A stretch of DNA of 64,000 bases, from NCBI GenBank assembly GCA_973895155.1, contig OZ316895.1, positions 3,025,659 through 3,089,658 on the forward strand, read 5' to 3'. This document shows positions 5,788 to 26,412 of the stretch, piece after piece (within the stretch, counting starts at the first letter, position 1; every line of letters begins with the position of its first letter). A program made the translations under genes and the position numbers. Origin of the DNA: Marsupella aquatica (Eukaryota > Plantae > Marchantiophyta). The notes under the pieces were generated by a model, which saw nothing but the letters and a program-made list of their open reading frames with translations, was not told where the DNA came from and searched no databases.

Positions 5788-7704
5788 ATGGCGGCCCGGA
5801 GAATAGCTGCTTTGAGCTCTCCTTCGCCTGCTTCAAATCTGGCTGGTAGGCCGCATTTGCAATTCACTAGAGATCTTGCCAGTAATGGCTGCTGGAATGG
5901 AGGCCATCGACTCCTGAAGACGAATCTTCTTGTGCAGGGGTCGAGATTGATCAATGTTCGTCATGATCCACAATCCAGCAGCAGCGTCACCCTTGGAAGA
6001 AACACCGTTGGCAGAAAATTGCAAGCCTGCCTTGCTGCACGAAATATGAGGTGTAATTCAGAGCAGGGGTCGTCCAACGTAGTGACAGCTACCCTTGGAA
6101 GAAACACTGTTGGCAGAAAATTGCAAGCCTGCCTTGCTGCACGAAATATGAGGTGTAATTCAGAGCAGGGGTCGTCCAACGTAGTGACAGCTGACGTTCA
6201 GGAGACATTCCCGGATGAAACATATGACCGATTGGCAGAAGGGCAGCAAGTTCCGCTTTATGATACTGCCAGCCCGAAGCAGAATCCACGAGGTCTGACT
6301 GGGGAACGAGAGCCACATCCATACGAGGATGTACACATCGGAGCCAGTTGGAGAGAGATTCAAGGGGAAAGCAATTGGGAAGGGCTGATGCTCGATCCAC
6401 TGGACCACCGTCTACGAAGTGAGTTGGTCCGTTACGGTGAGTTTGCGCAGGCCACGTATGATGCTTTCGACCAGGACGAGTTCTCAAAATTTTGCGGCTG
6501 CTGCAAATATAGGAAGAGAGATTACTTCGAAAAATTAGGCTTGAGGAATCGTGGATATGAGATCGTTGAGTATATCTACTCCACAACCGAGGTCCAGGAA
6601 GACCTCTCAAAATTTTTCAAAACATCCAGAGCCCCACCGGACGAAAAGTGGAGCACAGCATCAAATTGGGCAGGGTTTGTTGCCGTGTGCACCTCGCCGG
6701 AAGAGATCGCCCGGCTGGGACGCAGGGACATTGTTGTTGCCTGGCGAGGAACCGTCACCCAGTTTGAGTGGATTGAGGACCTTGAATTGTCCCTGTGTCC
6801 CACCGGACCTGACCCTTGGGCTGTACAGAACGAACCCAAACGCTCGCCCTCACGGTTTGGGTCGGTGAAGGTGGAGAAAGGGTTTCTGAGCTTATACGAG
6901 TCCACGAATGAGGGCTCCAGGCATAACAACACCTCCAGTGCCAAACACCAAGTGCGGCGAGCCTTGAAGTGGCTCATGAAGAGGTTCAAGGGTGAGCAGA
7001 TGAGCATCACCTTGACCGGTCATAGCTTGGGAGCCTCTTTGGCAACTCTATGTGCATATGACATCGCTGAGTATTTGCTCCATGAACAGCAAGGTCGAGA
7101 CTTGCCCATGATTACCGCTTTCGTTTTTGCATCGCCGCGGGTCGGCAACACGGCGTTCAAAGACGTACTGGAGAACCTTAATGTGAAAGTGTTGCGAGTG
7201 GTGAATATTCAGGACTTCGTGCCTTGCGTCCCGGGCCTGCTTTTCCACGAGAAAATTAAATTCTCGCGCATGTACGTCTCTTTGTTGAGGAAGTCCCTCC
7301 TGATTCGGATGATACAACGAGTTATCGACTTCATTCCGGCGACATATTCCAATGTTGGTGTGGAGCTTGAGGTGGACAATCTGCAGTCACCTTTCGTCCA
7401 GCCAACTCGCTCTCCTGTGAGTACGCATAACCTCGAGCTTTATTTGCATCTTGTGGCCGGGTTACAGGACAAGGCTCGTGCGTTCAGTGAGGCTTTGTGC
7501 ACAAGGGACTTGGCTCTTGTAAATAAAACGACATCTCTACTCACACATAAGCATAGCATTCCAGCTGCTTGGTATCAAGAAGAGAACAAGGGGCTCGTCA
7601 AAATTGGGGGCCGCTTCACATATCGTCCTGTTCCACATGAGGACTTTCCGGAGCAGCCGCTGGATGAGGACGCCTTCGACCGGGAGCTCCATTACATACA
7701 CTAG
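5788..7704 (+). CDS. Phospholipase A1, class-3 lipase, DAD1-like/PLA1-I type, probably plastid-targeted, intronless (638 aa from ATG 5788)
   Basis: Motifs WREIQGESNWEGL, RYGEFAQATYDAF, GRRDIVVAWRGT, catalytic GHSLG, FASPRVGN, VVNIQDFVPCVPG (Asp) and THNLELYLHL (His); Ser/Arg-rich N-terminus typical of a transit peptide. Confidence 0.93.
   Translation: MAARRIAALSSPSPASNLAGRPHLQFTRDLASNGCWNGGHRLLKTNLLVQGSRLINVRHDPQSSSSVTLGRNTVGRKLQACLAARNMRCNSEQGSSNVVTATLGRNTVGRKLQACLAARNMRCNSEQGSSNVVTADVQETFPDETYDRLAEGQQVPLYDTASPKQNPRGLTGEREPHPYEDVHIGASWREIQGESNWEGLMLDPLDHRLRSELVRYGEFAQATYDAFDQDEFSKFCGCCKYRKRDYFEKLGLRNRGYEIVEYIYSTTEVQEDLSKFFKTSRAPPDEKWSTASNWAGFVAVCTSPEEIARLGRRDIVVAWRGTVTQFEWIEDLELSLCPTGPDPWAVQNEPKRSPSRFGSVKVEKGFLSLYESTNEGSRHNNTSSAKHQVRRALKWLMKRFKGEQMSITLTGHSLGASLATLCAYDIAEYLLHEQQGRDLPMITAFVFASPRVGNTAFKDVLENLNVKVLRVVNIQDFVPCVPGLLFHEKIKFSRMYVSLLRKSLLIRMIQRVIDFIPATYSNVGVELEVDNLQSPFVQPTRSPVSTHNLELYLHLVAGLQDKARAFSEALCTRDLALVNKTTSLLTHKHSIPAAWYQEENKGLVKIGGRFTYRPVPHEDFPEQPLDEDAFDRELHYIH
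5989..6192 (+). repeat. In-frame 102-bp (34 aa) tandem duplication in the PLA1 N-terminal extension
   Basis: 5989-6090 and 6091-6192 are identical apart from one synonymous change (aacacc/aacact); the protein repeats TLGRNTVGRKLQACLAARNMRCNSEQGSSNVVTA. Confidence 0.95.
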
Positions 7705-10539
7705 GAGAGAGAGTAATAGGAGCCACCATCTGGAAAGGTCGATTGCTAACTTGCGTCTTTGAATATCCCCGCACTCATGAAAGCAATGAATTCGATTCTA
7801 CACACTCAGGAGGGAGGTAGCTGAATAGCACGGGTCAAAGTTACAATTCTGCGAATTGGACAAACACCCATTGTGAATTTGCAAATATTGGAGCAGGAAT
7901 TGGAACTTGTAGCGCAATGAAACGCTAGCAGTCTGTCGTGCAATTTGCCTGTAAACAAGCGAACGACAATAACTCTATGGTGCGCATCATGCACCTTGCT
8001 CGATATATCGTCAAATCAAGTAAACGAGCGGATATACATGGACATTGATCTCTCGCAGCACTAAATAGATTCATTCAAGTGAAAACACCCTATCCACATA
8101 TATATTGCAGGAGAACTTAAGTGTCATTGGATATAGTCAGAAGAGTCTTTGCAGGAGACTCGTATGATTGTACAGTTGTTGGGATTTATTCGATCTAAGC
8201 TGACAGGCGACTTGAGCTTGTAGCATTGCAGAAAAGCATTATGATGCTTACTCAGTAGAGTTTTGGAGGACACTCGAGTCCCTGATGTTCAAATTCGGGA
8301 TACATTTCAAGAGTGGTCGATCAAACTTGTTGCCATTTGGGCTCGTTGTATATACACCTCCAATGTTGATAACTTTATTTTCTCCGTATCAATAACACAC
8401 ATGATTGAGAACAGACAGAGCAGCCATTTCATGATTCTATGAACTTCATTGTATCGACCCGGTGTATCGATCTACAAGAGAAAATGCCAAATGTGTGTGG
8501 TGAGATGTCGTTCTGCGTCAACCTGTCTTCCACTGAACGTAAGGTAATTAAAATCTCACGAATATCATTACACATTTTGTCGTCATCTTGTGTATGAACC
8601 TTTTTGTAAACCAATTTGACACGAATAAATTAGTTTTAGTTGATTTGGTGGGTGTGCTCTCTTTCACTCCTCGTGACGTTAGAACTGTTGGCCCTCACTT
8701 TTAAAGCCGGAGCCACATGTCATTTTTTATATGACAACTTTTTGGTGTGTGGTTTCCTTCTACTCATTCACACAATTCTATTCATTCACACTATGATTAT
8801 CATCTGGCTGCTAACTTACCGTTCAAGCTAACTCTCTGCTCAGTTCCCATTGCCTCTCATTGTCCATGGAGCTGCAATAACTGTACACGCTATGCTCCAA
8901 CGTACTACCAGTGTGCAGAAGACCCGGCGGGTAAGTCTAACATTCAATGACATCACTACTATGATTGAACGGGAGATGCGGTGACCATGCTCTCCCTTTT
9001 GTCCCATTTTTTGGGAGACTGACTTGCTGTAGCCTGGGGGACAGCCAACTCGTCTCTTGGGAGGTGCTTTGTTTCAGGACTTGACTTTTGTTGGGTGTTT
9101 GGCCCTTGATCTTGCCTGTTTTCCTGTGTGTGAGGTGTTTGTGTTTTCCTTTGGGTGATTTTGCCCCCTTTGAGTGTGATTCTTGTGTGCTTTAGTACTC
9201 TGGGTTTGTTGTTCTTTGAGCCCTGCTGGTCTTCGCCACGGTGGCCTCTGGAATAAACAGGCGCACTGCCATCCTTCGTTTAAAATTTAAAATAAAAAAG
9301 AGGGGTAAAAAAACTTTTTTGGCGTCTGTAAATTATGAATCCCTTTTCAAATTAGTCAGTATATCCATGTTGGAACTGGGATGACTACTTTTTTGAAATG
9401 GTTAACATCTTACTTATAAATACTCATAAAGAGCTAAGGGAAGCTAGAGTTGGAGTCTAGGCTTCTAGAGTGGGTCTAGACTTCTTGAGTGAACCGGTGA
9501 CTCTAAGGCCCCACCAAAATATATGTGCATACAAAACAGTATGTGCATGGACAGAATTATAGGACCCCACCAAAATTCATGTGCATGGAGATAATGATGT
9601 ATGTTAAAATGATGACATGTACCATGGTTTCTATCATCGTTTCAAAGCTCACAATGACTCCACAATGACGCTTAGAAAAGACAAAACTGAAAGCATGGTG
9701 GACAAAAAAGATGGGGCAAAGATGAAAGGGAAACAGGGTAGAATCATTTTTTTGGCAAAGTTTTTTTGGGTTTTCATTTATCTAAGGGGGCAGGAATCAA
9801 AATTTAGGGTGGGAGTAAAAAAGAGGATGGGGTGGGGTGAGTTTTTGGAGGTTTTATGATGCAGCCAAATCAAATGTCATGTGTGAAGCAACAGAATTTA
9901 TAGTAATACAAGCAAATTATCAAAAGAAGAAATGGAACATGACAAGAGTATGACCCAGAGGAAATGGGAATAGAGGCATAAAGAAACTACAAGTGTTTCG
10001 TATATCGCCATGCAATTTGATTTAATTGTCAGCTGTTTCTATTTCCTGACCCTTGCTCCACTAAGTTTTATCCATGAAACTTTGTATGTTGGACCTTCCT
10101 ATTGAAGGAGAAATCTCTCAAGTGGGGTTTCCTTTTCTGTTTTGATACATTATTCTTATTACACTAGGGAATATATTTTGTGGATAGTTTATTGTACTCA
10201 CCTCCATTCACAGTCAAAGAACGGGTAGTCAGGGCTAGTTATATACTAAAATGGATCAACTATTACTAACAGCAGTGACAAACTAAGGTTTGATCCAACC
10301 TATTTATTGAAAAGTTTGTGATAGCATTTACATGATATACTAATGATTCATTATAGTATCTAATGATTAGTATACCTTCTAATCATTAGTAGCCCAAGTA
10401 TTATTTTCTCACCTTAATCAGGTCTACTAATGATTCATTTTTGCACTCACTCATAGTGCTGTCAACTGGTACATTGTCTGGGTAACTTTGAAATACAAAT
10501 GTAGAGCTTTAGACACAACTACATTTTACGGCTGATTAA

Positions 10540-11010
10540 CGGACTTTTAGAAGATGTTAATCACAACGTATATGGCCAGCGGAGGAAAGACCTCATTCAC
10601 GACGTCAATAGAGCGACGTTAATTACCACGTTTGGGGAGACGCTCTTTACCACGTCCAGCACATTGTTCTTAACGTCGTACAATAGGAGGTATATGGGTT
10701 TACAACGTGTCAGACTACGTCAAATATACCCAACTCTCGTGTTTAACTTTACCGATAAACGTCGTGTCAGGCTACGTAATGAAACATTAACCACGTCTGG
10801 TGCAATGGACTAAACGTCGTATTATTTTAGCGTCGTCCGTGGCTGGTAAATTACGACCTATTTGAGACGTATGGGTAAGTTGACATAGTAGGGGACGATG
10901 TATCGTGCTCTTGTTGTGCGACGTACGTTGGCTTATGTAGGGCTCAACGATGTACTGTGGTGGTTAAAGGTCTTATAAAGGAGGACGTATACGGGAGTAC
11001 ATACGTCCTA
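10540..11010. repeat. Left subterminal cluster of ACGACGT/ACGTCGT motifs
   Basis: Examples: cacgacgtc about 10598, gcgacgttaa about 10613, taacgtcgta about 10671, aaacgtcgtg about 10756, aaacgtcgta about 10812. Confidence 0.85.
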
Positions 11011-13831
11011 TTACACATTGCACTGTCTGGGTGGAGTCCTTGTTAGGGTTCAGCTCACACACAATATAACCATGTGTTTTTACATATTGTAACCCGGAAT
11101 GAGGTGCCACCACAAATGGGTGGCCTGAATCAAAATGGCAAAAAATATGTACATAATGCATGGAGGACCTCCTGCTACTGAAATACCTACAACCTAATGC
11201 CGTTGAGAATGGGGCCTATCACGTCCCGATCCTCCGCCTCGTCGCCGACGCAACTGATACTGCTGGGCATCCTGCTCTGAGGCACTGCTACTGCCTTCTG
11301 GTTCCGGTGCAGCCGAGGGTGGAGCCTTGCCTCTAGGTTTTGGCACTATCTGCCTGGTGCTACGTGTTACCCTAGTGGACCGCCTCTCACCACTCCTCCT
11401 TCTCCTATCTCTATCCCTATCTCTCCCTCTCTCTCTATCTCTATCTCCCTCCTCCCTCTGTCTCTCCCTTCCTTGTCCTCTGGCCCTATGAGTCTCCAAT
11501 GCAGGGAAAAGGTCACGAGAAGTGGAGCCCTGCTGACCGCAAGGTACTGGGTCCTCCTCCTGGGTACCCTCCTCCATGGTTACAGTGTTGGGCTCCTCAT
11601 CCTCCTCAATGGGTCGTGCTACTAAACCCTCTGGTGCAGTCCAATCCACCTGTGCACAAGATACAATTTCAGTCTAGGTTTGCATAAGATACAGTTTTAG
11701 TCTAGGTCTATGGAATGGTACTGAACAAGCTAGCACACTTACCGGGTGGTCTTCCGGAACAGAGTCAAGCTTTGCCCATAGGGCTGCCGGGCCATATCGC
11801 TTAGAGTATAGCCGCTCTTGCTCACTCGGCTCGGCATCTCGGCCATACTTCCGCTTCTGCAGCAAAGGGAACTTACGTCGTTCAGGGCGATGTTATTTAC
11901 CTATCATCATACGACGTTACTAATACATACGTCGTCCATAAAGACGTTTAGGGGGACCCCATAGTATTAACGTCGATAGTACGACGTTAATGTAGTGCTA
12001 ACGTAGTTCAAAGCAAGGTACTACTAAGAAAACGTCATACGAGGAAAGGTAATGCGCGGCCAAGACGACGTTAATACTAAAAAACGACGTAAATCACAGG
12101 ATTACACCGCAACAGCACACGAACTGGCGAATGCAAACTTCAATGAGTATAGAGTGAGTCACTGCACTTACATAGGTTGCAAGAAATCCTCCCCAGATCC
12201 TCCCTGCCCCCAAAAATTAGTCACCTTCTTGCCACTTGCTTTTCGAACAGCAGTGGCCTTGTCTCCCATATGCACTCGCTTGCCAACTGGGGTGTCTAGG
12301 ACTGCTTCCAATTCGGAGACAATCAATTTGAAGTCCTCTTCACTCATCCCATCAGGTTTCTTGTAATCCCCTGTCCTCAAGTATCTCAGTTTTCGGACCT
12401 TGGCTCTCCACCTGAAACGCCGATCAGCTAGGTGATTCACGATCTTCTTCCTAATGTGGCGGTAGTCAATGTCACTTGCCTATCCAATGATTAATACGTG
12501 CAAACCGTACTTTTCCTTGCTTAAACCGTTGGTATCGTATTACGGGGTCGTGGAGGGACGCTATTTGGAGGATTTCCACACCTAAGGATGAGTATGTTTG
12601 ATTCCGCTCCCGGAAGTGTACTTTTTGATCAAGTCTACCGACTGGTCTCTCCGTTTTTGATCTTGAAGTCCAAGGGACTGGTCCTACCATCTACAACTCA
12701 TGCCCACCGGGTGAGTGCTGTCACCACCCCCCTCCTCTCTTGGGCAAGCATACCAACATTTACAATAAGATTTGAACACTAGTGACAAGGGCAAATGTTT
12801 CCACAACGACACCGACCACACGCACTAGGGGAGGAAAACAAACAACACAAGCAACAACAAGTGACACACAAAATATTGGAACCTCAAGCCAAATCCATAT
12901 CTCTTGGTGTTTCCCGTAACACATGCAAGGACAACCCGGCCTCCTGCCGTCTGCCCAACTCCTGCCTCCCGGGGACAAGTGCTACGTTCTCCACCTCACT
13001 ATACTCTGGCTTGAACTTCTCCTAATCGGTGCGCTACTCACAAAAGCTACTCCAAAGCATCCAAGTACTACGCTGAGTTCCCCCCTCACTACTTCGGGGC
13101 TCTCCCCCTAAATACAAAAAAAACCACACCAAAGCACCCCTCATGGGGTCACAACGATGGCGGCTACCCTAGCGGCGCCGCTAAAACCCTGCACTAAGAA
13201 ATCCCTAAACTAAAAAGGCATGCGGCACACACATGCTGCTAAAACCCTAAACCCTAAACAAGGGGCCGACGGTGCCTTCGATGGCGCCCCAACTGTACAC
13301 AGTGAACCCTGAAATTGCAAAACACCCCACAATGGCCGAAACTAGGTGCCCTATCAATTGTACTTTTGAGCTCACCCTTGGATAGCCCTTCTCCTCTTGA
13401 TCCCGAATCACTCAGCCGCACTCACAACGGACATCGGACGCCTGAGTTATGGTCGTTTCCGTATCGCGAAAACACAATTTCGTCGGGCCATAACTTGCTC
13501 ATCCTGGCTCCGTTTGAGGAGCGCCGCCTCTTGTTGGAATCAGCTCCGCGAGCTCTTTCCAACAAGCCTGTGAGTGACCCCTCACAAAAAAGTTGGAAAT
13601 CCAGAGGCTGTACAACCACATCCGTACGACTATCTACTCCTCCTCTTCTTCACTCTCGGTGCCCCGGCTTGTGCCCCGTGAGTGGGCCTCCTCTTCATCA
13701 CTCACGGGAGTGAATGCCACCTCACTTTTCTTCTTCTTTACCGGGGTACTCTTCGTGTTGCCGCTCCCTTGCTTCCTCAAAGTGGCCAAGGCCTGCCATG
13801 CCTTGATGTACCCCTCACCAATGGTGTCTTT

Positions 13832-15487
13832 CTATAGGGTAGCCTCTTCTCCGGACCGCAACTCCAACGGTAGAACTTGCCCTGTGGCCATGGGAGTCCC
13901 GGGGGTGACAGACCTGGGTGGCATCCCCGTACTGACCTGAGCCTCCCGTAACGATTTCCGTACCTCCCGGAGCTTCTTCTCCAAGCCCTTGCTCTTCTCC
14001 TGACTCTTCTTGACTCCATCCAACAAGGGCCCATACTTCCCACTAACCTCCTTCACCACCATCTCAATAGCCTGGGAGATCAAATCCGGGGAAAGTGTGG
14101 AGCTAGGTGTGTCGGGGCTCTTCCATTTCCCCAGACTCAAGGCCTCACTCCTCATCGCTCGTGTCTCAAAGGCGGCCACCTGACTCCGTAGTGCTCCCAC
14201 CTGGTTTCTCCACTCCACCACTTCTCCAGAATTCTGCTTCTCTTTTGCCAATGCTTGTCTCAACGCTCCCACCTCTTCTGCTTCCTTGGCCTTGGTGGAC
14301 AAGGCTCCCTTCAAGTTGGAGATCTCTACGTGAGCTACTTGGAGAAGCTTAACCTTCTCATGAATGGTCCCCTCCTTGGCCTTGATCACCTCCTTCAGAG
14401 ACAGGGTACTCTGCTCTAACGTCTCTACTCTGGCTGTGGCGTGCTTGAGAGAATCTCTCAATGCGTGGACTAGCTTGAGTCCCTCATGGACTCCCTCTCT
14501 GAAATCCCGTAGCTCTGCTAGGTAAACATCCGGAATGTTGTAGACCAGCGGTTTTTTCGGATCTCCCACGAGTGATTCAAGCCACTCCAACGTGTAGTCC
14601 TCATCCTGGTTTTCTTCTCCTCTATCGTCATCCCCACCCGCCGACGATGATTCCTCCGTGAGCTTCCCTAAAATGGTAGTGGCAATACTCCGGATCTCCG
14701 TGGTGAGAGATGATCCCGTGTCTTCCTGTCCCGGGGAACCAATCAACCCTTTTGCCCTGGCCAATACAAATGACCCCATCAAATGTACAGCCCCACCTGG
14801 TTTCCCACTCCCGGGATCAGCGGCCAACAGCTTCTTCAACCCGTAGTACCACCATCCGTACACATGGGCTGGGTGGTTTTTGATGTCCATAGCTACCACG
14901 AAATGCTCTTCATTCACCACCCCGGATTGCACGTTGCCAAGGACCCGTTGATGAACCTTGGCCAGGAATCCCTTATACTCAACATCCTTGACAGCGGAAA
15001 GATGGATGGCAGTGGTGGAGGTGGGATTAACCACCCAAGTGGCCACCATCTTCAACGTGAGTTCTCCCCTAATGTGCCGAGGTGTGAATGAGAATTTCTG
15101 ATTCTCCAGAAACAGCAGCCTAGCCAACTCCACATGGGGCACTACACGTTTGAGACATTCAAAGTAGATTCCCTCCGTTCGTAACTCCATCCCGGCCTCA
15201 ATGTCCCAGCTCTTCTCCGGAGGGATGGTAATCTCCACCTTCATGAATTCTGTAACCCCGGTGGCTTGGAAAATATTTCGACAATCCTCCATCACCTTGG
15301 CGGAGGTCTTGGGATAAATTCGACGAAAAATCCTCCTACCCACCGGTGTGGAACCTGCTGCCAATCCCGTGCTCATCGTAGCTTCTCTCTCTTCTCTCTC
15401 CCTTGCAATCAAAATCTCCACGTAGTCACGGTAAGTAGCCTTGTATCTCTGAATGCATGCCACACTAAACTCCGGTTGATCTAGCAT
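13832..15487 (-). CDS. 551-aa ORF inside the LTR-like insertion; resembles retrotransposon accessory ORFs (ATHILA ORF-1/Transposase_32-like N-terminal half, coiled-coil C-terminal half)
   Basis: Long open frame from ATG 15487; the pattern FQATGVTEF...AVKDVEYKGFLAKVHQRVLG...SGVV recalls plant TE accessory domains; heptad-rich region afterwards. The frame continues past the TAG at 13832 to a TAG near 13634, so the stop may be premature. Confidence 0.6.
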   Translation of the reverse strand: MLDQPEFSVACIQRYKATYRDYVEILIAREREEREATMSTGLAAGSTPVGRRIFRRIYPKTSAKVMEDCRNIFQATGVTEFMKVEITIPPEKSWDIEAGMELRTEGIYFECLKRVVPHVELARLLFLENQKFSFTPRHIRGELTLKMVATWVVNPTSTTAIHLSAVKDVEYKGFLAKVHQRVLGNVQSGVVNEEHFVVAMDIKNHPAHVYGWWYYGLKKLLAADPGSGKPGGAVHLMGSFVLARAKGLIGSPGQEDTGSSLTTEIRSIATTILGKLTEESSSAGGDDDRGEENQDEDYTLEWLESLVGDPKKPLVYNIPDVYLAELRDFREGVHEGLKLVHALRDSLKHATARVETLEQSTLSLKEVIKAKEGTIHEKVKLLQVAHVEISNLKGALSTKAKEAEEVGALRQALAKEKQNSGEVVEWRNQVGALRSQVAAFETRAMRSEALSLGKWKSPDTPSSTLSPDLISQAIEMVVKEVSGKYGPLLDGVKKSQEKSKGLEKKLREVRKSLREAQVSTGMPPRSVTPGTPMATGQVLPLELRSGEEATL

Positions 15488-15989
15488 TCATGCATCCCGA
15501 AATCAAATCGTCACCCGTAGCAATGTCAATTCCCTGGCCCGAAACAGCCCCCTATAGCCCGATTAATTTATTTCTCTCAATCCCTTCCGTCGTCACTCCA
15601 TGTTGCTATCGTTAATGCCCGGACAGTCCCCGCAATCCCCCATGAGTGAACCTTGAGAAGAATTGGAGAGAGAGCTCAAATAATTGTAACATAAGGAGAA
15701 AGCTTTCGGCAATAAGAGAGAGAAACTCGAGTTTGCTTTCGGCAAGAGAAGGGTCGTGTGAAAAGGAGAAAAGAGGGGAGAGAAAAAAAACAACGAAACC
15801 CTTCCTGGGAGCTTCTTTTTGCCTTGCGCCCCGGAGCCCTCCTTTGTCCCGTGTCACACCATTATGAGTGGTAGTATAGGATATCGGACTATGTAGGTTT
15901 GAGGCTTTCATATGTGTGTGATCGTGTCAGACAAGATTGTGTGTTTGATTGGCATCAATCGTTGTTCGATTATTCTTGAAGATGAATCA

Positions 15990-16175
15990 GCCACAGGCCG
16001 TGGGCTATGGGTGACTACCCACGCAACCAAACTGCAAGAGGGCACAGGCCGTGGGCTGTGGGTGACTACCCACGCAACCAAACTGCAAGAGGCCACAGGC
16101 CATGGGCTGTGGGTGCCAACCCACCCAACCAAGATGAATCGGCTACAAGCCGTGGGCTGTGGGTGCCTCCCCACC
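15990..16175. repeat. 51-bp tandem repeat (about 3.5 copies) within the LTR-like insertion
   Basis: cacaggccRtgggct(a/g)tgggtg units start at 15992, 16043 and 16094, with a diverged copy at about 16145. Confidence 0.9.
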
Positions 16176-17602
16176 AAAACTCTCTTTGCTCAAGTCATGC
16201 GCTAAACACGCCACAATCGATGTCTGTTGTGTAGCGATGTTTATGCGCACGACACCCGACTCGCGGGAGTCCCCCCTTCCTCGTAGCTCGCTGGCTCGCG
16301 GCCCTATGCAGGGCTCGCGGCCCCCCTGCCCGGTCACTCGCGGAGCCCCCCTTCCTCGCTGCCCACTCGCGGAAGGATTTAATGGGGGTTTAATTAAACC
16401 CCCCCATACTTCCCCAGTCTTGCTTGAGTGTTGCCTTAGAAGGGGTGTTACCAAAAAATTAAAAATGCTTATTTCCCGGACTTCCTTACCTTCCCGGAAA
16501 GTCACGATTTAAAACCCCCCAGGTTTTGCCCCATAATTAACCCGGGTCTAGACAAAACTGTTGGGGTCTCCGACTATCCCGAGATGCTTTAAAAAACTTT
16601 ACAAACTTAAAGAACATTAAAAAAACTCGCGTCTATGGGCTTATTTATTTACAAGTGTCTTGCTGGTGACACTAATGGTGACTTACCGTGGCGGGACCCG
16701 TCACAGTCAATCTCTCACCCATTTCTGAATCCAGCCTGCACGTCATTCAGGAGCAATTGGAACTTCTTTTGGTTATGCACAAGCTCCTTCCAAGTAGTCC
16801 AACCGGGACAGTGTTTAGCTACGCACGTCTGCACTCTGTTCGTGAGTGCTTTCTCATCCATGACGTCCGGCCTAGCATCAAAAGCGGCAAGGGTGATGGT
16901 GGGAAGGTGCTCCCTGTTGGCAGAAGCAGCTGCAACTTGCTGAGAAGGACGTCGCCGCTCTGGAGGAAACGATCGTGAGTGGTCTTCTCTCCTCTCTGCT
17001 CTTGTATGTCGATCTCCCCTACGTCTCTTGCTAGAAGTGCATGCATTGTGGTCATTAGATCCTTTCCCCTTTCGCCTTCTCCTTTCAGTGCTGCTATTTG
17101 ACGAAGAACGAGATCGCCTCCTCCTCCTCCTATGTTGCCGATGGTCCCTCCTATCATCTTCTGGCCTGTATCTCTCATGTGGGATTGTCACTTGACTCTT
17201 GATAGGAGTTTGAGCTGCTGCCTGAGAATCTAGTTGAATCCCAGTGAAGGCAGGATCATCCCAACCATCGTCTGGTAGACTCGGGAACAAAGGTAGCATA
17301 TCAATCGATGCCCCATCAAGCTCGGGCGTGGATTTAGGCACTTCAATCGCGGCCCCCTCCTCAATCTCGGCCCCCTCCTCGTCGGCAGGAGTGTTGGCCT
17401 CAATACTCTCCAGGTATTCTATAAACCTGGACTCCTTTGTTCCTTGTCCTCCCATGAATTGCCAGCTGTGGTTGAATGCTTGAACTAGTGAATGTGTCGA
17501 ACGTAGGGCTCGATGCACCTTCTCCAACTCCTCTGGATCCTCCAAACCCACCTTCAGTGCATCAAAGTTCACACTACAGGGAAGATAGCCTGGATACGAC
17601 AT

Positions 17603-18041
17603 GGCAGACTATTCTATGAGCAATTATGTGAGGTAGAGGAGGCAAGGAGAGGTAAGGACTAGAGGTGGGGAATGTCGAATGTGAGTCACATTCAAACACT
17701 CCCTCGATACTCCCCCGATGTTTTCCAAAGGAAATGACCGGGGATGCCTAACCTCGTGGATCCACCATTTTCCTGATTTTACGTCATTACGAGAAACGAC
17801 GTACATAATACATCATACTTAACGACGTTAATCTGGATAAACGTCGTACTTAGTGTTTTAAAGGTCATTGTTTGCGGGTCCATTGACGACGTTAAATGTT
17901 AGGGTTTCTTCAAAAAACGACTTTAAGGCCTTGTAACGTACTGTATGGCATTGTACTTTAGGGTTAGGGTTTGTGTGGTAGGTTTAGGGTTTGGATCCTT
18001 CCCTACGCATTAATCAAAGACGGTTCAATTTGTTGCAGGGC
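17603..18041. promoter_or_regulatory. Putative bidirectional promoter between the TnpA-like and TnpD/SET genes
   Basis: About 440 bp between divergent ATGs (17602 on -, 18042 on +); ACGACGT cluster at 17795-17897; telo-box-like tagggttt/ttagggttagggttt runs at about 17899 and 17958-17992. Function is inferred from position. Confidence 0.5.
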
Positions 18042-19547
18042 ATGGTGATCTATGCATCGGACTCTCTGTCTGATGAGAGAGATGATGGGGATACGAGTCT
18101 TGGCTCCAGATACCGGCATCGTGATAGGGGTAGAGACTATTCGCCGGATAGGAGGAGGGATCATTCGCTGGTTAGGAGGAGGGACTATACGCCGGATAGG
18201 TGGAGGGATGACTCACTGGATAGGAGGGATTATTCGCCGCAGAGGAGGGATTATTCACCAGAGAGCAGGGGTCGTGAGTCATTGCCCCGGAGGACGCCTA
18301 GTGGAGTCATTGCCCCGGAGCCTAGTCGTGAGTCATTGCCCCGGAGTCATGAGGACGGAAGGAGAGAGAGGAGCCGCCGTCATCGGTCACACCATCGCCG
18401 GCAGTCACGTGAGCCTCAGGCATACAGCTCACCTTCGCCAGTGGAGGAGGGGTTTGGAGCGGCCATGGCTGCTCTTCATGGTATTGGACCAGTCCGCAAG
18501 ATGCCTTGCCCTTGTAGACGATGCAAGGGCATTGTATCTCACGAGAGCACTACCATCGTTAGCCACTTAGGGATCCACGGTCGTTATGTTCCACCGACAC
18601 CAGAGGTAAGTTTTATCCTTTTGCACAACCATTTTGAGTAACTTTAACTTTTACTAGGTTGGGGTAGGTTGGCTTCTTGAGCAATGTTCATGTTTCTCGC
18701 TTTCTAAACATTTTGTTGCATACATGTGGAACAGATTCTTATTGTACGGTCTCCCCCTAAGGACCGCATGAGAGAGGTTGCACGTCGAGCGCTCTCAGCT
18801 CTGGTCCCCCCATCGGCACTAGATGCCACCTTACGGGCAATAGACCGTGTATTTGATAGGGTGAGGGTGGCACGTGTGCACCCTATTGAGAGGGGAGTAG
18901 TGGTCAGTACTAGACCACGGTCGTTGGAGTCTCGTCCGCCTAGGATGAGGCCACCCCATTGCCCTTTTCTTGATGCATCTAGTGCCCGGGAACCGAGAGA
19001 GTTACGTGGGAGAGCCTTGGACATCATAAAGGACTCATTCCCTACCCAATTTGGGCTCCCATTGGACCTTCCAATCAGGGAACCTATCATAGTCTGGGGT
19101 CGCCCTTGGGTCCTCCTTCCCTCCACATTGGGCCCTAACGTAGGATTAGGATTATTTGCACTTGTAGATATTGTGGTCCCTGATGGTTGTGAGCCCGAGG
19201 ACTTGCCTCAGCTCTTTCCATTCTATGGGCCAAAGTATTATGCACAGCGATGGCGCATCTTGTCTCGACAATGTCCAACCTTTGGTCGATATGGCATGTC
19301 TGTCAAGCTAGACCCTAGGTATGCTCAGATGGATGGTTATTCACCCCGCACTGGAAACTTGGCAGGTTACATCAATAGCACTGTGGGTTGTCGGCGTTTA
19401 GGTTTTAGGCCAAACGCTGAGTGGCACGAGTACCATGACCAGACCCACCCTCGTTTGCCACAGGCTTGTACTCATAACATCTTGACCCAAGCTAGCCGCA
19501 CCATTCGAGCAGGGGAAGAGATTTTTGTAGATTATGATTGGCATTGA
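18042..19547 (+). CDS. Predicted transposon-encoded SET-domain protein: exon 18042-18605 (RS/RD repeats plus CPCxxC...HL..HG zinc-binding module) joined to exon 18735-19547 (SET); about 458 aa
   Basis: SET motifs in the expected order: GLGLFA, FYG, DG...GNLAGYINS...PNA, RTIRAGEEIFVDY. Phase-0 donor GAG|gtaag at 18605/18606 and phase-0 acceptor cag|ATT at 18734/18735; no stops or frameshifts along this path. Confidence 0.8.
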
Positions 19548-22500
19548 GGATGGACATGATATATTCAGAATATATGGACCCATTGTTGCATATTGCATTA
19601 AATCATATTTTATTATTTGTTTGATTATAATGTTGTATTAAATAATGATTTTAACAATTGTAGGATGGTGCATACATTACCCCTACACCTCACCCATCCA
19701 TGATGACGATGTCAGCGCGTGACTTTCACCTATGGGCCACTCTGCACTTTTCTGATGAGGAAAATGTTGAGGGGGATAGTGACCATGAGGAGTACCCTGA
19801 TGCATATGATGGAGACTTTGATGAGGACGATGGAGATGAGGGGGATGCACCCATTCTTGAAGAGGAAGCTTTTGCCCACCTTGTGGACGTTCACTTTGGA
19901 CCACATGCACCTCAGGGCGAGAGGCCTACCATGGAAGTAGACCAGGAAGATTGGGACCAGTTGGAAATGGAAAGCCAGAACTCCACTCTTCCTGGATTCT
20001 CCATCATCACGGTAAGTGTCATGCTTGATTGAATAGTATCATGTGTCGACCATTACTTACCACACCCAATGTCATACCTCAAACTAATTGCATACAATTC
20101 CCTGGTTTCACAAATGCAGGTTGGGTGCCACTTTGTTGATGTTGAATTTGCAGGGAGTTTTCAACACTTCAGACGTCCATATAGATGCACTATTCCAGCT
20201 ATTCCACAAAAAACTCTTGCCCCAACCAAACACTCTCCCTGGGTGTGTGAGGGAAGCTAAGAAGTTGTTAACCTCAATTGGATTGGCTTTAGAGACTATC
20301 CACATGTGTCCAAGTGGTTGCATCCTGTACAGAGGGACATACCTTGAGCAAACAGAGTGCCCAGAGGCACAATGTAAGCTTCCACGGTACCGACTGGATA
20401 CCATCGGCGAAAAGATCCCAGAGAAGGTGATGTCCTCCTCCTCCTGGCAGTGTTACGTTTGTTAGAACGTAGTTTTGCCCATTTTCCTTGTCATTTCCAA
20501 TGTACGCACACGTATGTCATTTCTAAAGACATAACTTACGTCTCCAAATCACCAGTTAGTTTTTACGTCGTCTACTACATGGTACACATATATTTACGTC
20601 GTTAATTAAGACACAAATTGAAGTTTCCGACGTTACTAACATCTCTGGGAAACTTTACGTCGTATGTTACATTGTACCGATGTATTTACGTCGTGTAAGA
20701 CGACATTAACTTTGATTTAACGTCGAAGTGATGCTTGTAACACTGTTTATGGCAGGTCTTCAGGTATTTCCCAATCACACCCCGACTACAGCATCTTTAT
20801 CGACGGAAACATTTATCAGCACTTCAAACATGGCATGCTGAGAACAAATCTCCACCAGGGATTATGCGGTATCACCACAATAGTCCAGCATGGAAGCACA
20901 TCGACAGCACTTGGCCGGATTTTTCTAGGGAGCCAAGGAACATTCGATTGGGGTTAGCAATAGATGGGGTAAACCCATACAAGCAACGACGGAAGCCTAA
21001 GTCCATATGGCCAATTCTTTTGCTCAATCAAAATATCCCTCCATGGTTGGCGATGAAGAAGGGTCATGTTCTCCTCCTTGCTATCATTCCGGGTCCTCAG
21101 GCCTGTAAAAATCCAGACATTTGTTTGAATTGGCTCCAGCTTATGAAGAGTTGCAGAAGCTATGGGAGTTTGGGGCAGTGACCACAGATGTGACTTGGAC
21201 ACCGGATAATGGGAGGACATTTAATATGAGAGCAATGATCACCCATTGCACCACGGATGGTCCAGGTAATTCTCAATCATAGAAATAATTGAGACATACA
21301 TTGTGCATGGTTCTATTGCATGTGACAATGGTTTTTGGCCTGAATGTTTTAAATGTCATTGACAGGTATGGGCACAATATCTGGCTTGAAAGTGGTCGAT
21401 TATTCAGCTTGCCCTTCATGTGGTCCTGAGTTGCATGGGAGATACTCTAAGCGTCTGCACAAAACCACATATGAGGGCAGTAGGGTTCGTTTGCCAATGG
21501 ACGATATATTGCGACATAACACCACACATTGGGCTGAGACTGAGTTTAGGCCATGTCCCAATGGGCCTTCAGCTGAGGGTCAAATTCAAATGGCGGAGAA
21601 AGTGGAGGCAAAGTTACTTCAACCTAAGCACTGTGGTGTCAATCGTCGCTCAGCTTTGTGGGACTTGCCTTATTGGAGGGTAAGTAAAATCAGATTGGAC
21701 CTATTTTTAAGTTAGTGACTTGTAGTATTCTATTTATGAGTTTCTCACTAGCACAACCTGGTTCTTCATCTTGTAGAGGCTCCAGATCCGATGGTTGTTG
21801 GACCCCATGCATATTGAAGTAAATGTTGCCAAGAACCTGGTGAAGCACATTTATGGGATGAATGATACTCGTGGGGTCCGAGAGGATGCAAAGCAGGTTG
21901 AAGTGGTCAAGAGTTGTTGGATAACTCGAGATGGGGAGAAGCCACCTGCTCCTTGGGTTTTGCCAAAACAGATTTTGAAGGAGATGAACGGGATGATATG
22001 TGAAATGAAATTCCCTAGCCATTACGGAGCCGGCTTCCGTGGGTGCACTACAAGGGAAGACCACATACCCCCAATCGGCTTGAAGTCTCACGATTATCAC
22101 AAGTTGATTCAGCATGTGTTACCTGCTGTCTTGCGTTGTTGTGATGATTCTAGAGAGCGACGCCTACTCCGACATACAGTATATGAGTTGTGCTCCATTT
22201 TCAGGTTAGCATAGTCTTGTTGGCCATACTAATAATTTGACATATGTTTATCATACTAATAATTTGACAAAATCTTGAGTACCCCTTACAGGTGGGTATG
22301 CGCCAAGGAAATAAAGGAGAGTGAGATTCCCGAGATGAGGGAATGGTCTGCCCGTGTTATGTGCAATATGGAGAAGGTGTTTCCCCCATGTATTTTTGAC
22401 ATGCAGTTGCATTTGCTATGTCATCTGGTGGATGAGGTAGCCATTGCTGGTCCAGTGCATGCGCGGTGGATGTATTGGGTAGAGCGGTTCATGAAAGTGC

Positions 22501-23606
22501 TAAAGTCTTGGGTGCACCAACCCGCTCGACCAGAGGGAAGTATGGCAACAGGGTATATTATGTCAGAGTGTCTGTTCTACTCAAGCGGGGTGATAGGGAG
22601 TTTGGACACACAAGCTCCCATAGCTTGGGAAGAGGCACAAGATGATGACAATGGTGGGTTGCGAGTGATGGGCGCATCAAAGAAGCGATCATTACATGAT
22701 GACATTTTTCACCGACAGATCCACAATTATGTGTTGGAGAACTGCACCGAGATGTCAGATTGGAGAGAGTTGTATAGGTAGGGACGTAATCCTTCATGAA
22801 CTGAGTCCTACTTAGATTTGAAATGTACATTCAAGGTGGTTGGCACAAATTGGGATATGTGACCCAGTACTTGCAGGGCATGGGTGGAGCAGCAACGGAT
22901 AGGGGCAGCACAAGAGCGTGTTCATGCATCATTTTGCATATGGGCCTTGGAGTGCATGGAGGGGCTCCTTGCAATGCATGGCCCTACATTCATTCCCATT
23001 GATGTACAAAACATCATTAGGGGGCCTTCGATGTGGGCTATGAGTCATACTCACATGTATGAGTCAGGGCACCACTTTCGGACTTGGAGGACGGACCATA
23101 TGAAGAAGAGTACTTGTAACTCTGGAGTATATATGGTGCCCGATGTCGGTGATGTTGAGGTTCCTTATTGTGGCATTGTCTTGGATATTTTGGATGTTAA
23201 TTTTGGCTCATTTACCACCACGGTGTTAGAGGTGAGGTGGCACAAGTCCATCATGTCACCTCCAGCAAGAGCTACCATGGTGAAGGATGAGTGTGGATTT
23301 TATCGTGTGGACACGACCCGTGTTGCACCAAGCGGGACTGAGTTTAGTGACACTATAGTTTTTCCTAGCCAAGTGGATCAATGCATTATGGTTCCGATGC
23401 ACAGCATGGGAGGATGGTCCATTGTGATTCCCATCTTTCCACGCCGCAGGAAGGGCTTCATGCCATCAGCTATTGCAGACGATGAGGATTGTCATGATAG
23501 ACTCACTATCCCCATTTGTATTGACTGTTGTCATGGTTTGCATATAAACAGACATATTTCATGGCCTAGGCATCTGTCAATTTGGAGAGTGGGATGGGCT
23601 TGTTAA
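18042..23606 (+). pseudogene. TnpD/Tnp2-type CACTA DDE transposase (Transpos_assoc, Transposase_21, DUF4218 and DUF4216-like regions), multi-exon, with two frameshifts
   Basis: Exons about 18042-18605, 19664-20011, 20120-20427, 20757-21266, 21366-21679, 21777-22205, 22292-22777 and 22877 onward. Motifs IHMCPSGCILY, RYFPITPRL, SPAWKHID, RNIRLGLAIDG, TDGPG, DPMHIEVNV, GLKSHDYH, FPPCIFDMQLHLLCHL, WMYWVERFMKVLK, FPSQVDQC. Frameshifts at about 19971 and about 21128. Confidence 0.9.
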
Positions 23607-24142
23607 TCACTTGGTAAAGAAACAAGTAATAACCATACATTTATGGACATGATCCCTCGGCCTTCTACTACAAGGGATAATTGTCATTAACATCGTCCGA
23701 AACAATGCACGTCGATACCAAATTCTCTAACATCGTTTATAGCTACGCACATTTGACGTAATGGTAGTTAACGTCGTGTACCGAACCATCAGTCAACGTT
23801 ATAAGGGTTTATTAACGTCCTTCTATACGTCGTAACACGGTGAAAATGACGTTCTTAACGATGTATGGCGCGACAAAAATATATTACCTCGAGTAGAACG
23901 ACGTTAATAATTAGATACGACGGTTCAGTCAACGTACTAAATTTTCTTCGATGTTAATCACAGGCAAAAGATACAACATTCAAACCACACAATTGTTGCG
24001 ACAAATAGCACTCATGGATGTGTTTATTGCTGCACATAGACCAAATAGAGATACACCATAGCTCTACCATCCTTTCTACTGGAAATGTAGCCTACATGAG
24101 TCATGGTCATCCCTCTACACCCTCCCTCCAGACTGATGTTGA

Positions 24143-24706
24143 TTAAGGAGTCCCTTCTCCAGACCAGTAGTACTCCTCGTCTGCTTTCCTCTTCTTGTAC
24201 GAAGCATGCCTTTGGCTGGCATTCCAATTCTTCCGCACAACAGCTTCACTGGCCTGTAGCCTCTGAGCCTCCACCTCGGCTGCACAACTTTCCTTGTAAT
24301 CAAACATAGCAATCTGAAGTTCAGTGGGTGACAGGTCACATTTAGACAAGGTGGGAGGGTAGGCCTCACCATCATCATCCTCGGGCGAATCTTCCAGACC
24401 ACGATCACTGCTCGGATGCAACAAGAACTCTCCTGGATCCAACTGCTTGTTGGCAAGAATGGAGCACTCTACCCACCGAGTAGAGATGAAGGGCACGGTT
24501 TCAGCGAAATGCTCGATCAAGCCAGCATAGTCACTAAAGTGCTGGACCACAACCTGTTTCCACGTATTTGCAATCAAGAAATCGGTCTGTGAGGTACATA
24601 GCTTGTCAACAAGCCCTCCATGGCAAAAGAACCCTCGAACCATCTTCTCCTCCTCACCAAGTGGGAGGAAACAACAATGCACATTTGCAAAGAACTTCCG
24701 CACCAT
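24143..24706 (-). CDS. BRCT-domain protein (187 aa) carried inside the CACTA element
   Basis: BRCT pattern FANVHCCFL...FFCHGGLV...TDFLIA...FISTRWVECSILANKQLDPGEFLL (beta1, GG turn, WxxxS helix), followed by an acidic linker, a helix and a KKRK NLS-like motif; intact ATG to TAA; lies between the TIRs. Confidence 0.75.
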   Translation of the reverse strand: MVRKFFANVHCCFLPLGEEEKMVRGFFCHGGLVDKLCTSQTDFLIANTWKQVVVQHFSDYAGLIEHFAETVPFISTRWVECSILANKQLDPGEFLLHPSSDRGLEDSPEDDDGEAYPPTLSKCDLSPTELQIAMFDYKESCAAEVEAQRLQASEAVVRKNWNASQRHASYKKRKADEEYYWSGEGTP

Positions 24707-24834
24707 AGCTGAAGTCTTTGCCTCCCACGGTTCAACTTCTCTACACTGAGGACCTTTGATGTCTTCACTCGGGAATGTTGGCTATAGTGAGCCTCCTGCC
24801 TATAGTTCAATCTGTCCTCCGCTGATATGTGGAA

Positions 24835-25160
24835 ATAACGTCGTTTTTCCCGATGCACGTATGGTATTCTATGATGACGCATCTGCAGATACGTCGTTCC
24901 AAACGCCTAAACTTAAGAACGTCGTCCTATACATCGTTCTAGTTTACGTCTTCCAGGAACAGGTAAATTACCACGTCTAGTACGACGTAATGTAAGGTAC
25001 AACGTGATATACGAGGTAACTTACCGTGTCTTAAAGGACGTAAAGTTAACGTCACACAAGTCAACGTTATCTGATCCCGTCAGAACTCCTGACGACATCC
25101 GACAACAGTCCGGAACTTAACGACGTATAGTCCGTCGTAAATGGAAGGAACGTCGTCTTG
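24835..25160. repeat. Right subterminal cluster of ACGACGT/ACGTCGT motifs
   Basis: aacgtcgtt about 24837, tacgtcgtt about 24890, aacgtcgtc about 24918, tacgacgtaa about 24981, aacgacgta about 25119, aacgtcgtc about 25149. Confidence 0.85.
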
Positions 25161-26412
25161 GGTTAGGTTAAACCTGGTCCCGAAATACGAAAATGTAGTT
25201 GTGGAGCTTCAAACAAGCTCTAGGGCAGGAGCTTAAAACCACTAAGAGGGGGTGAATTTCTTCAAAAAGTGGCACTTTGGTTAACTAAGGCAATTACATC
25301 GAAATAAGAATACACAACAAAAATCTCAATAAAACAAAAAAAGACCTGAGTAATCTTCCAAACAGGTTAACACCACACAAATATGCTCGACATGGTGGAA
25401 CTCATTTCACCTTCTTGTCTTGCAGCAATCAAAACACAATTTTGCTATATCTTATTAATGAGCTATAGTTAAAATAACATTTACATAAATTGGCTATAAT
25501 TATCCTGGAACTGATGTGGACCTGTGGACGGGCAGAGGTAGCCAGGGGGAGAAGGGGAGGCACTGGGAATGGAGGTCAGGAAAGAGGAGCCCAAAGTGAC
25601 AAGAAGGTAGGAGATTCAGGGAATAATTAGCTCAAGGACCCCTCGGTTATGTAAGTTTGTTTTATTCAACTGTTTTGAGCCACAAAGAGTTGTACATTGG
25701 AATAGATAGATTAGAGCACATCACTGGATTCTGTCACAAAGAGTAACTTGTATGATTGTGGAAACAAACATTCATAACTATTTGTGTTTTCTCTCTCTTT
25801 TAACCGTTTCCCTCCTTCTTCCTTTCTTTCCAGGCATCCCCACACAAGGGAGGGCATGCACAGACTATAAGGGAGATCCTTGTGCTAGGCAAGGGAGGTG
25901 CCAAGGGTTAAGAGGAGTTTTGGCAAACTTTGAAAACTAGGAAAAAGAGGCAATAAGGAATAGACCAATATTACTTCTCACCTAAAATATAAGATAAATG
26001 AGATTTTGGAGAGATTGAATATTGTAAATGAGTTTTAGATATCAATACATATAAATTGTGCCCTCTTGATTTTAAAACAAAAATATAATATACTACCAAT
26101 ACGTAAGAAAAATTGAGCTGGACCACATACTAGTTCTGGATTGTCCAAGTCAGAGGTTAAGATGACCGAGTCTTTTGGGAGGCTTTTGAATGGGTAATGT
26201 GTAAGGTCTGGTTAGAGGGCATTGTGGGATATAATGTCCCCAAAATGAGGGATTTTGCCCAAGTTTCAAGGGACATTATATATGGCCCATAATTTTCACT
26301 TTCAAAACATTAACTAATATGAAGACTTGAGAGAGTCTTGGAAAGAAACCAAAAAAGTCCCTAAAATTAAGGCCATGCAATGGAGCATGCAATGGTGTGT
26401 ACAAAGAAAATA

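Follow-up and report, generated by a model that had tools for sequence, protein, structure and literature searches.

The window, by which we mean the whole 64,000-nucleotide stretch of Marsupella aquatica DNA analysed, contains a dead member of a likely bryophyte EnSpm/CACTA-lineage family. This family retains a SET-domain exon within transposase intron 1 and probably a convergent BRCT gene too. We propose that the SET exon is spliced onto transposase exon 1; the predicted product combines a zinc module with a SET lysine methyltransferase and would modify the chromatin of the element itself. Taken as a whole, from dead copy to self-directed methyltransferase, this explanation stands for us at an even balance.

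The element is delimited by CACAACTACATTTT, a perfect 14-bp inverted repeat whose left copy (10514–10527, plus strand) starts CACAA and is preceded by GA and whose right copy (25190–25203, minus strand) matches it at 14 of 14 positions and is followed by GA. The unit is thus bounded as the first-pass annotation had it. Its short terminal inverted repeats (TIRs) and CAC..GTG ends are those by which the EnSpm/CACTA (CMC) superfamily is defined (PMC12730594), and its transposase has both Transposase_21 and DUF4218 above the Pfam cut-off. The earlier label of CACTA element holds at this superfamily level, but the ends read CACAA..TTGTG, not CACTA or CACTG, and a 3-bp target-site duplication is absent from the flanks of the one copy compared; typical plant CACTA elements are described with CACTA or CACTG ends and a 3-bp duplication (PMC10741241). 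The flanks, AGA and GAG, have two nucleotides (GA) in common, a candidate 2-bp duplication that in a single copy has a chance probability of 1 in 16; in the wider CMCT clade duplications of 2–5 bp are described (PMC12730594). The right TIR junction was read with no or one difference in contigs of X1, X2 and X3: these carry the very same insertion and are therefore not independent lineages. Rfam returned no match in the sequence, and a sigma-70 promoter scan was set aside as irrelevant to plant DNA. Related loci for SET and BRCT were absent from the viral contigs and prokaryote genomes searched, as expected of a plant element.

The transposase gene lies on the plus strand and consists of eight exons separated by GT-AG introns, with Pfam matches to Transposase_21 (E 7e-27), DUF4218 (E 1e-30) and Transpos_assoc (E 1e-3); no Plavaka-type family is listed by Pfam for these exons. 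Exon 1 (18042–18605) encodes Arg/Ser/Asp low-complexity repeats and a Cys/His module (CPCRRC..H), and ends in a phase-0 donor. Its Transpos_assoc match (E 1.3e-3) is also found in two metagenome loci, L001 (1.5e-3) and L002 (1.5e-4). Exons 2–4 occupy 19664–20011, 20120–20426 and 20756–21265, and exons 5–8 occupy 21366–21679, 21777–22204, 22292–22777 and 22877–23606. Exon 5 contains a CPSC motif and exon 7 an HLLCH motif; the D/D/E catalytic positions are presumptive. Exon 4 has no stop-free frame (there is a frameshift near 21125) and the phases of exons 2 and 3 do not agree. The element had been read as coding for four products, but four working ones are not confirmed: besides the frameshift in the transposase, the TnpA-like gene carries an insertion and an in-frame TAG. 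With frameshift, phase break, insertion and stop the copy lacks the intact transposase and intact accessory gene of an autonomous element, and is only a fossil record of its family.

Within transposase intron 1 lies the SET exon (18735–19547, plus strand), intact and stop-free, with a phase-0 acceptor, its own stop and a reading frame in phase with exon 1. The SET exon of the original annotation is borne out: Pfam (24.1 bits against a cut-off of 22.4) and the predicted fold agree. Nor is the exon restricted to one copy. A metagenome scan reduced 99 pattern matches to two loci, each less than 2.2 kb and too short to hold BRCT or the divergent gene, and both, at 46–47% identity, have SET placed after an exon that resembles exon 1. 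All three sequences (window, L001, L002) show exon 1, an intron of 129–156 nt and then SET, with phase-0 donor and acceptor; beyond SET, L002 goes on to an acidic exon resembling exon 2 (E 0.004). Diverged contigs retain the exons, have their introns swapped, and bridge SET to both adjacent transposase exons: X1 joins 18613 to 18710 via 98 different letters, and the joints in X2/X6 run from 18609 to 18722 and from 19547 to 19661. Identity at the three codon positions of SET is 0.56/0.66/0.36 for L001 and 0.56/0.65/0.32 for L002, a comparison of sequences that shows purifying selection on the exon. A tally of synonymous and non-synonymous changes was set aside as a selection test, covering as it does only the variants listed. 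Among those variants, the majority change 19241 T>G would by itself give a stop in the SET exon; 20 of 30 homologs carry Ser at this codon, so a second change among the unlisted variants is likely.

Searches returned 29 SET homologs (36–64% identity), of which CAM6082854 and CAM6101687 are assigned by name to the liverwort Calypogeia fissa; the tree was built from SET sequences alone, with no host outgroup and no paired transposases. These data bear on the idea that SET and BRCT are host fragments captured recently as Pack-CACTA cargo and of no use to the element. CACTA elements are indeed described as carrying host sequences (PMC10741241), and the physical linkage of BRCT is a matter of tiling alone. 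However, no annotated host gene occurs among the 29 SET or eight BRCT matches, third positions are near saturation with the SET protein retained, and the intron position is identical at 46–47% identity. We hold capture to be highly improbable overall, and for SET it is largely refuted. SET is, on the sequence evidence, very probably integral to the family: the original view of integral modules as opposed to random captures stands for SET (both loci, codon-position identity, bridging contigs) and probably extends to BRCT. The grounds first given for it were partly mistaken, since SET is not flanked by motif clusters and both core genes are defective in this copy.

How SET is expressed is less firmly indicated. 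It may be joined to exon 1 as an alternative last exon, a splice we regard as somewhat probable. Within the scanned stretch, the window and L002 each have no phase-0 YAG other than the chosen acceptor, whereas L001 has three, the chosen one included; seven of the 29 homolog ORFs start with a hydrophobic run ending in Gln right before the conserved part, which reads like an in-frame T-rich acceptor and hints at splicing. Alternatively, SET could be an integral but separately transcribed nested gene whose product tunes transposition by methylating non-histone targets, among them proteins of the element itself. There is an in-frame Met at codon 12 (kept in six of the 18 alignment rows with a residue there), the most distant subgroup (P0025–P0029) starts at its own Met with no acceptor-like run, and a histone substrate is not singled out by the fold. 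Yet the phase-0 donor and acceptor are present in three of three loci, L001 has no Met until just ahead of the conserved core, and matching in the diverged contigs restarts at 18710–18722, where the acceptor lies and before the Met is reached. A separate gene is, in our estimation, unlikely.

The structural model of the SET product (pLDDT 85.9) matches SET folds with Z 12.3 and rmsd 2.6 over 124 residues. SET1, SET8 and PRC2 tie as matches (Z 12.0–12.3) and therefore the fold does not single out a substrate; viral SET structures give no closer match than those of cellular origin. SET lysine methyltransferases are characterised by GxG, NH(S) and ExxxxY motifs. G139, F141, G165 and N214 are invariant in the family and Y267 is present in 29 of 30 sequences, the remaining one being truncated. 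The His of NH(S) is replaced in all 30 (by Ser in 29, otherwise by Ala), as it is in LegAS4, which likewise has no canonical His in the alignment, and the product has no post-SET region. It is quite probably an active methyltransferase. Opposite the Tyr of the 'IYTG' motif, at a position we take to be the equivalent of EZH2 Y641, 23 of 30 family sequences have Phe, and the presumed F/Y-switch position is Val in 22 of 30; because of these two residues the predicted enzyme probably favours higher methylation states. In EZH2 itself, Y641F is described as favouring trimethylation (PMC3914023).

Whether or not the target is the element's chromatin is, to our mind, a finely balanced matter. Were the mark repressive (H3K27me3, for example), SET would be self-limiting: it could quiet the element, or give a reversible Polycomb-type state in place of silencing by DNA methylation. 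PRC2/EZH2 is among the tied best fold matches, Phe occupies the Y641-like site, and transposable elements of liverworts and hornworts are described as often marked by H3K27me3 (10.1101/2022.10.24.513474), but the same tie includes enzymes of activating marks (SET1/COMPASS), and we rate this self-limiting role as distinctly unlikely.

Opposite the transposase gene lies a divergent, minus-strand gene of several exons. Its first coding exon starts with an ATG at 17602, runs to 16719 and, beyond an insertion that interrupts it, resumes in frame at 12530 to end at 12172; this 3′ part (12172–12530) contains an in-frame TAG (12480–12482) and has a phase mismatch to the next exon. The third exon (11743–11856) is placed by splice signals, and the last (11194–11649) is acidic, Arg-rich and has no Pfam match. 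The first-pass annotation described a divergent TnpA-like/TnpD pair: the divergent multi-exon gene beside the transposase is there, but searches lend the TnpA label no support. An Spm TnpA-like protein is recognised by two tandem tri-helical HTH motifs or by a Transposase_24-type match. The pieces of the gene, split as it is by the insertion and by introns, were searched separately and gave no match in Pfam, Atlas or NCBIfam, and phmmer against longer proteins returned none of 218 candidates. The label goes by resemblance. TnpA-like proteins seem, according to a recent preprint, to be confined to flowering plants (bioRxiv 10.64898/2026.08.24.746577).

The nested insertion (12531–16718; 4,188 bp) is not part of the CACTA element. 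A 5-bp duplication, imperfect at one position, bounds it, and it lacks long terminal repeats. It carries a minus-strand ORF (13832–15487) for a 551-aa coiled-coil protein that had previously been missed and that bears a weak resemblance to Transposase_28 proteins (Atlas score 0.85), which we treat as a lead only. Transposase_28 proteins are gypsy-associated. The ORF was rejected as a TnpA-like or fifth product, since the insertion that holds it is separately marked off by the 5-bp duplication.

The presence of a repeated motif among and around the genes, claimed earlier, is confirmed. WWACGTCGT occurs at 23 sites, where shuffled sequence averages 0.13 (maximum of 2 in 200 shuffles), and its ACGTCG core at 35, where shuffles average 2.4. 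Although 65% of the element is coding, 33 of the 35 core sites are non-coding (P 4e-13). They form six non-coding clusters of mixed motif orientation: left subterminal (10560–11010; 17 ACGT cores, CpG o/e 1.55), within an intron of the divergent gene (11870–12095; 10 cores, 2.2), between the divergent genes (17775–17940), in transposase intron 3 (20450–20725; 10 cores, 2.08), between the 3′ ends of transposase and BRCT (23690–23940; 9 cores, 2.52) and right subterminal (24830–25160; 13 cores, 1.93). L002 has a related cluster from −261 to −132 relative to the exon-1 ATG, at a distance equal to that of the window cluster at 17775–17940. CpG o/e is 1.99 in the clusters and 0.16 in motif-free introns; since 98 of the 145 cluster CpGs are part of the motif itself, CpG retention may reflect selection for binding, not low methylation. 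The accessory ORFs had been described as bordered by the clusters, which is so for BRCT (four and six core sites on its sides) but not for SET (none in either adjoining intron piece). It is possible that the divergent gene encodes an Spm-TnpA-type binder of the arrays that would keep them under-methylated.

The BRCT gene (24143–24706, minus strand) is intact and convergent to the transposase gene, a single exon for a product of 187 aa. The complete convergent ORF previously reported is upheld, stop-free from 24706 to 24143. It encodes one BRCT domain, an acidic linker and a long C-terminal helix. Pfam is weak (E 0.04), but the predicted structure resembles known BRCT domains (Foldseek E 6e-6; Z 13.2, rmsd 2.1, 88 residues), with the GG turn and conserved Trp of the fold present and PARP4, XRCC1 BRCT2 and Rev1 as best matches. 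Seven of eight search matches are credible, two of them from Calypogeia (CAM6123900, CAM6101053); P0051, a tandem-repeat protein, was removed from alignment A3 as spurious. In three of four runs the relatives' contigs end their match precisely at the BRCT stop codon (24143). BRCT is tiled into the element by joints from 23500 to 23940 and from 24691 to 25118 and by a contig over 24016–24382, so the link is via overlapping contigs; none of the recovered contigs or loci holds both BRCT and transposase, and in Calypogeia the accessions for SET are not neighbours of those for BRCT but sit on contigs of other lengths. From these sequences BRCT is probably integral to the family.

The phosphate pocket of BRCT domains is marked by a Ser/Thr-Gly signature. 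The first-strand loop here is FLPLG, which does not suggest a phospho-histone reader. This matters for the scheme first put forward, in which DNA binder, SET and BRCT act as one complex that undoes silencing on the arrays. The three genes do share a TIR-bounded unit with six CpG-retaining non-coding clusters, and VANC and TnpA are precedents of motif-directed anti-silencing. Against this, SET is not bordered by clusters, the BRCT is single with a loop lacking that signature, and Spm TnpA uses host demethylases while H3K9me stays, so that no SET partner is needed; we find a single complex quite unlikely. On the explanation we prefer, binder, SET and BRCT need not form one complex, and BRCT would act in repair of the transposition break and not as a chromatin adaptor.

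Among known systems, the nearest are En/Spm of maize and Spm of Arabidopsis, with their TnpD and TnpA, which share Transposase_21/DUF4218, CAC..GTG ends and clustered short motifs; their accessory product shares transposase exons or has a separate gene. Spm TnpA, which binds motif clusters, induces hypomethylation via host demethylases without H3K9me removal (10.64898/2026.08.24.746577). In contrast, the candidate alternative product here is a SET enzyme, a BRCT gene is extra, clusters are internal as well as terminal, the ends are CACAA and the duplication is at most 2 bp. The main text of that preprint makes no mention of 'SET domain', methyltransferase, moss or bryophyte. The red-algal Plavaka (EnSpm superfamily) is, as described, also a giant element with several accessory genes, one with SET, and repeat arrays proposed as self-binding sites; its PAG2 fuses a DNA methylase to SET and occupies a cassette of its own, which by description sets it apart from the lone SET exon in intron 1, and that description, in the part available, includes no BRCT (10.1101/2025.02.11.637652). 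Transposon-borne SET genes are further cited for HarbingerS and MuDR of Phytophthora and for Helitrons (PMC12730594, Bostrychia preprint); these are of other superfamilies and hosts, and the passages available describe no function test. SET on transposons is thus already published (HarbingerS, MuDR, red-algal Plavaka), with oomycetes and red algae as recorded hosts. We found no paper with SET nested in a CACTA transposase intron, although Repbase or supplements may hold bryophyte EnSpm entries with SET, and no BRCT gene on a CACTA element in the literature searched.

Arabidopsis VANDAL/VANC offers a second likeness: VANC21 sites are described as short motifs densely arrayed within introns, between genes and in the non-coding ends of VANDAL, with local CG hypomethylation (PMC5735166). 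The arrays here also lie in non-coding parts of the element. VANDAL, however, is a MuDR element with VANC21 motifs in a single orientation, whereas the present arrays are mixed, and Pfam gave no VANC-family match for any of the present ORFs. The plant anti-silencing factors VANC and TnpA are, in the accounts available, DNA binders (PMC5735166, 10.64898/2026.08.24.746577). With a SET exon under selection in a bryophyte CACTA family, it becomes testable whether transposons write their own histone marks, and a SET-bearing family bears on why transposable elements of liverworts and hornworts carry H3K27me3; a CACTA BRCT gene would link accessory cargo to break repair. Such a family would be able to supply its own chromatin-marking and repair helpers. 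A doubtful but consequential extension is a self-contained kit, in which a motif binder, an exon-1-spliced histone methyltransferase sharing the targeting module, and a BRCT adaptor would mark copies in trans for escape from silencing and for movement. If true, this kit would offer a histone writer encoded by a plant transposon and amenable to experiment. Marchantia and Physcomitrium are transformable bryophyte models.

Summed contig depth relative to the transposase (three of four runs; X5, which was patchy, omitted), a rough figure and not a copy number, is 0.56–0.81x for SET and 0.69–1.06x for BRCT. By the same measure, as a rough hint and again not a copy number, the ORF of the nested insertion reaches 5.0–7.3x.

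Between exons 1 and 2 of the EnSpm/CACTA-type element's transposase gene lies a SET exon (18735–19547, plus strand); the boundaries at the end of exon 1, the start of the SET exon and the start of exon 2 are all phase 0. The structure model has a SET fold (pLDDT 85.9), but because its fold matches to SET1, SET8 and PRC2 tie (Z 12.0–12.3) the substrate cannot be named. Relatives numbered 29 among 2,970 candidates, and 99 pattern matches yielded two metagenome loci, L001 and L002. In both (2/2) a low-complexity, Cys/His exon is followed by a 144–156-nt intron and a SET exon in the same phase; L002 also has an exon-2-like exon after SET, and a motif cluster upstream of the ATG at a distance equal to the element's. 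Identity to these loci is 32–36% at third codon positions and 65–66% at second positions. Contigs of diverged subfamilies run from exon 1 into SET and from SET into exon 2, and have other sequence in place of the introns. The shared layout, the codon-position identities and the bridging contigs together argue that the SET exon is an old, selected part of the transposon family, an integral module as first proposed; that SET and BRCT are inert cargo is hardly credible.

Conserved phase and acceptor-like N-termini in 7 of the 29 homologs lead us to infer that SET is spliced to exon 1. Against this, the SET exon has its own Met; independent transcription of SET, with action on non-histone targets, is unlikely. 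A 30-sequence alignment shows that the family conserves the Gly and Asn of the SAM pocket as well as the final Tyr and has Ser in place of the canonical His. At the position that we take, with the alignment's support, to correspond to EZH2 Y641, 23 of the 30 sequences have Phe. The analogy with EZH2 Y641F (PMC3914023) hints at higher methylation states; deposition of a self-repressing mark by SET is very unlikely. Five homologs (P0025–P0029) form a deep subgroup in the SET tree, keep Tyr at the Y641-like site and apparently start at their own Met: this form may stand alone or be placed differently.

SET genes are known on HarbingerS, MuDR and Helitron elements (PMC12730594; bioRxiv 10.1101/2025.02.11.637652) and, within the EnSpm superfamily, on the Plavaka elements of red algae (bioRxiv 10.1101/2025.02.11.637652), so transposon-borne SET is a known theme. 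Neither a SET exon within a land-plant CACTA transposase intron nor a CACTA-borne BRCT gene was found in the literature covered, Repbase and paper supplements being outside its scope.

The transposase gene (eight exons, plus strand) matches Transposase_21 and DUF4218, and weakly Transpos_assoc; on these grounds the element is a member of the EnSpm superfamily. It is bounded (10514–25203) by a perfect 14-bp inverted repeat starting CACAA. Comparison of this single copy's flanks revealed no 3-bp target-site duplication, since only GA is common to both; a 2-bp duplication is possible but weak. The unit first described as TIR-bounded CACTA thus keeps its inverted repeat and transposase, but its ends are atypical: plant CACTA elements typically have CACTA/CACTG ends and 3-bp duplications (PMC10741241), and elements of the wider CMCT clade end in CA..TG and make duplications of 2–5 bp (PMC12730594). 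The left flank (10479–10513) is similar to the element's right end plus flank (GAAATAC..AAATGTAG..GAGCTT); it may represent the decayed end of a neighbour or a rearrangement of the insertion site, either of which might account for the lack of a 3-bp duplication. This copy is dead: every frame of exon 4 contains stops, its reading frame shifts near 21125, and the phases of exons 2 and 3 are incompatible. Relatives' contigs cease to match at 23483–23491, whereas the last exon here extends to 23606, and the family's stop may be earlier.

The divergent gene on the minus strand has its start at 17602, is cut at 16718 and picks up in frame at 12530; farther along, a TAG interrupts the frame and the phases on either side of the next intron disagree. 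With both genes so broken, four working products are not confirmed in this copy. Of the proposed TnpA-like/TnpD pair, the divergent gene itself is present; the TnpA-like label reflects resemblance and position, and the gene's pieces matched nothing in Pfam, phmmer, Atlas or NCBIfam. The 4,188-bp insertion lies between two copies of a 5-bp duplication that differ at one position. It holds no copy of the element's motif, and its summed contig depth, a rough measure, is much above that of the transposase. It is a separate element, missing from the first-pass annotation, and its 551-aa ORF is a weak look-alike of Transposase_28 proteins. This nested element (12531–16718) appears to be high-copy and is without internal long repeats; the ORF is coiled-coil, a 51-bp tandem repeat lies at 15990–16174 and a 20-bp palindrome at 16384–16403. 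With its limits moved by one base, it would begin with TG and end with CA, and so resembles a very large solo LTR with an ORF.

The convergent BRCT ORF (24706–24143, minus strand) is intact. Its Pfam match is weak (E 0.04); the best solved-structure matches of its profile are BRCT domains, and its model matches the BRCTs of PARP4, XRCC1 and Rev1. Eight matches, one spurious, were found among 1.84 billion representatives. Those SET and BRCT relatives that have a named organism all come from the liverwort Calypogeia fissa, which makes a bryophyte host likely; the SET and BRCT accessions recovered from Calypogeia do not lie next to each other. In contigs from three sequencing runs the match breaks off precisely at the BRCT stop codon, and overlapping pieces link BRCT to the post-transposase spacer and to the element's right end; no single record among relatives' contigs covers transposase through BRCT. 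Runs X1, X2 and X3 share the right junction of this copy and so count as one lineage, X5 being the only more distant run. The predicted fold stands, and the linkage through overlapping pieces makes BRCT a probable integral part of the family.

The consensus WWACGTCGT forms six clusters (both ends, two introns and both intergenic spacers), with 23 sites in the element against 0.13 in shuffles, confirming a repeated motif between and around the genes; 33 of 35 core sites are non-coding. The clusters have a CpG o/e of 1.99 and introns free of the motif one of 0.16, a contrast qualified by the two thirds of cluster CpGs that belong to the motif itself. Clusters lie on both sides of BRCT and none flanks SET, so the proposed bordering of accessory ORFs applies to the former only. 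Motif placement is comparable in VANC21 targets (PMC5735166), and motif-dense binding with hypomethylation is demonstrated for Arabidopsis TnpA (bioRxiv 10.64898/2026.08.24.746577); the element resembles VANDAL and Spm in motif layout only. In L002, a distant relative, the cluster (61–193) reads TTTTACGTCCT instead of WWACGTCGT, which suggests motif drift between families as in VANDAL.

In the likeliest mechanism, to which we give an even chance, intact family members would produce, through alternative 3′ splicing, both transposase and an exon1–SET methyltransferase that would mark element chromatin. A separate DNA binder would keep open the arrays of the motif, and repair of the transposition cut would be assisted by the BRCT protein. 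That a self-encoded histone-writer system is real is unlikely, and the complex of DNA binder, SET and BRCT first envisaged is quite improbable.

Related 17/35-bp tandem arrays, ∼72% alike, occupy opposite strands at 1–800 and 34260–34576; their core resembles the element motif, their CpGs are almost all decayed, and they hold no intact ACGTCGT versus 27 in the element's clusters. Elsewhere, a 3.4-kb duplication (30438–33759 and 44228–47569, 94.8%) carries a two-exon Chloroplast_duf (‘petal formation-expressed’) gene, and a second duplicated pair lies at 36898–37488 and 42534–43114 (95%). A Lipase_3 ORF (5695–7704) contains in its N-terminal part a 102-bp segment that is duplicated exactly and in tandem, and ordinary host genes comprise a thiamine monophosphate synthase exon (56841–57494) and a PRISE/VEP1-like reductase (58573–59841).
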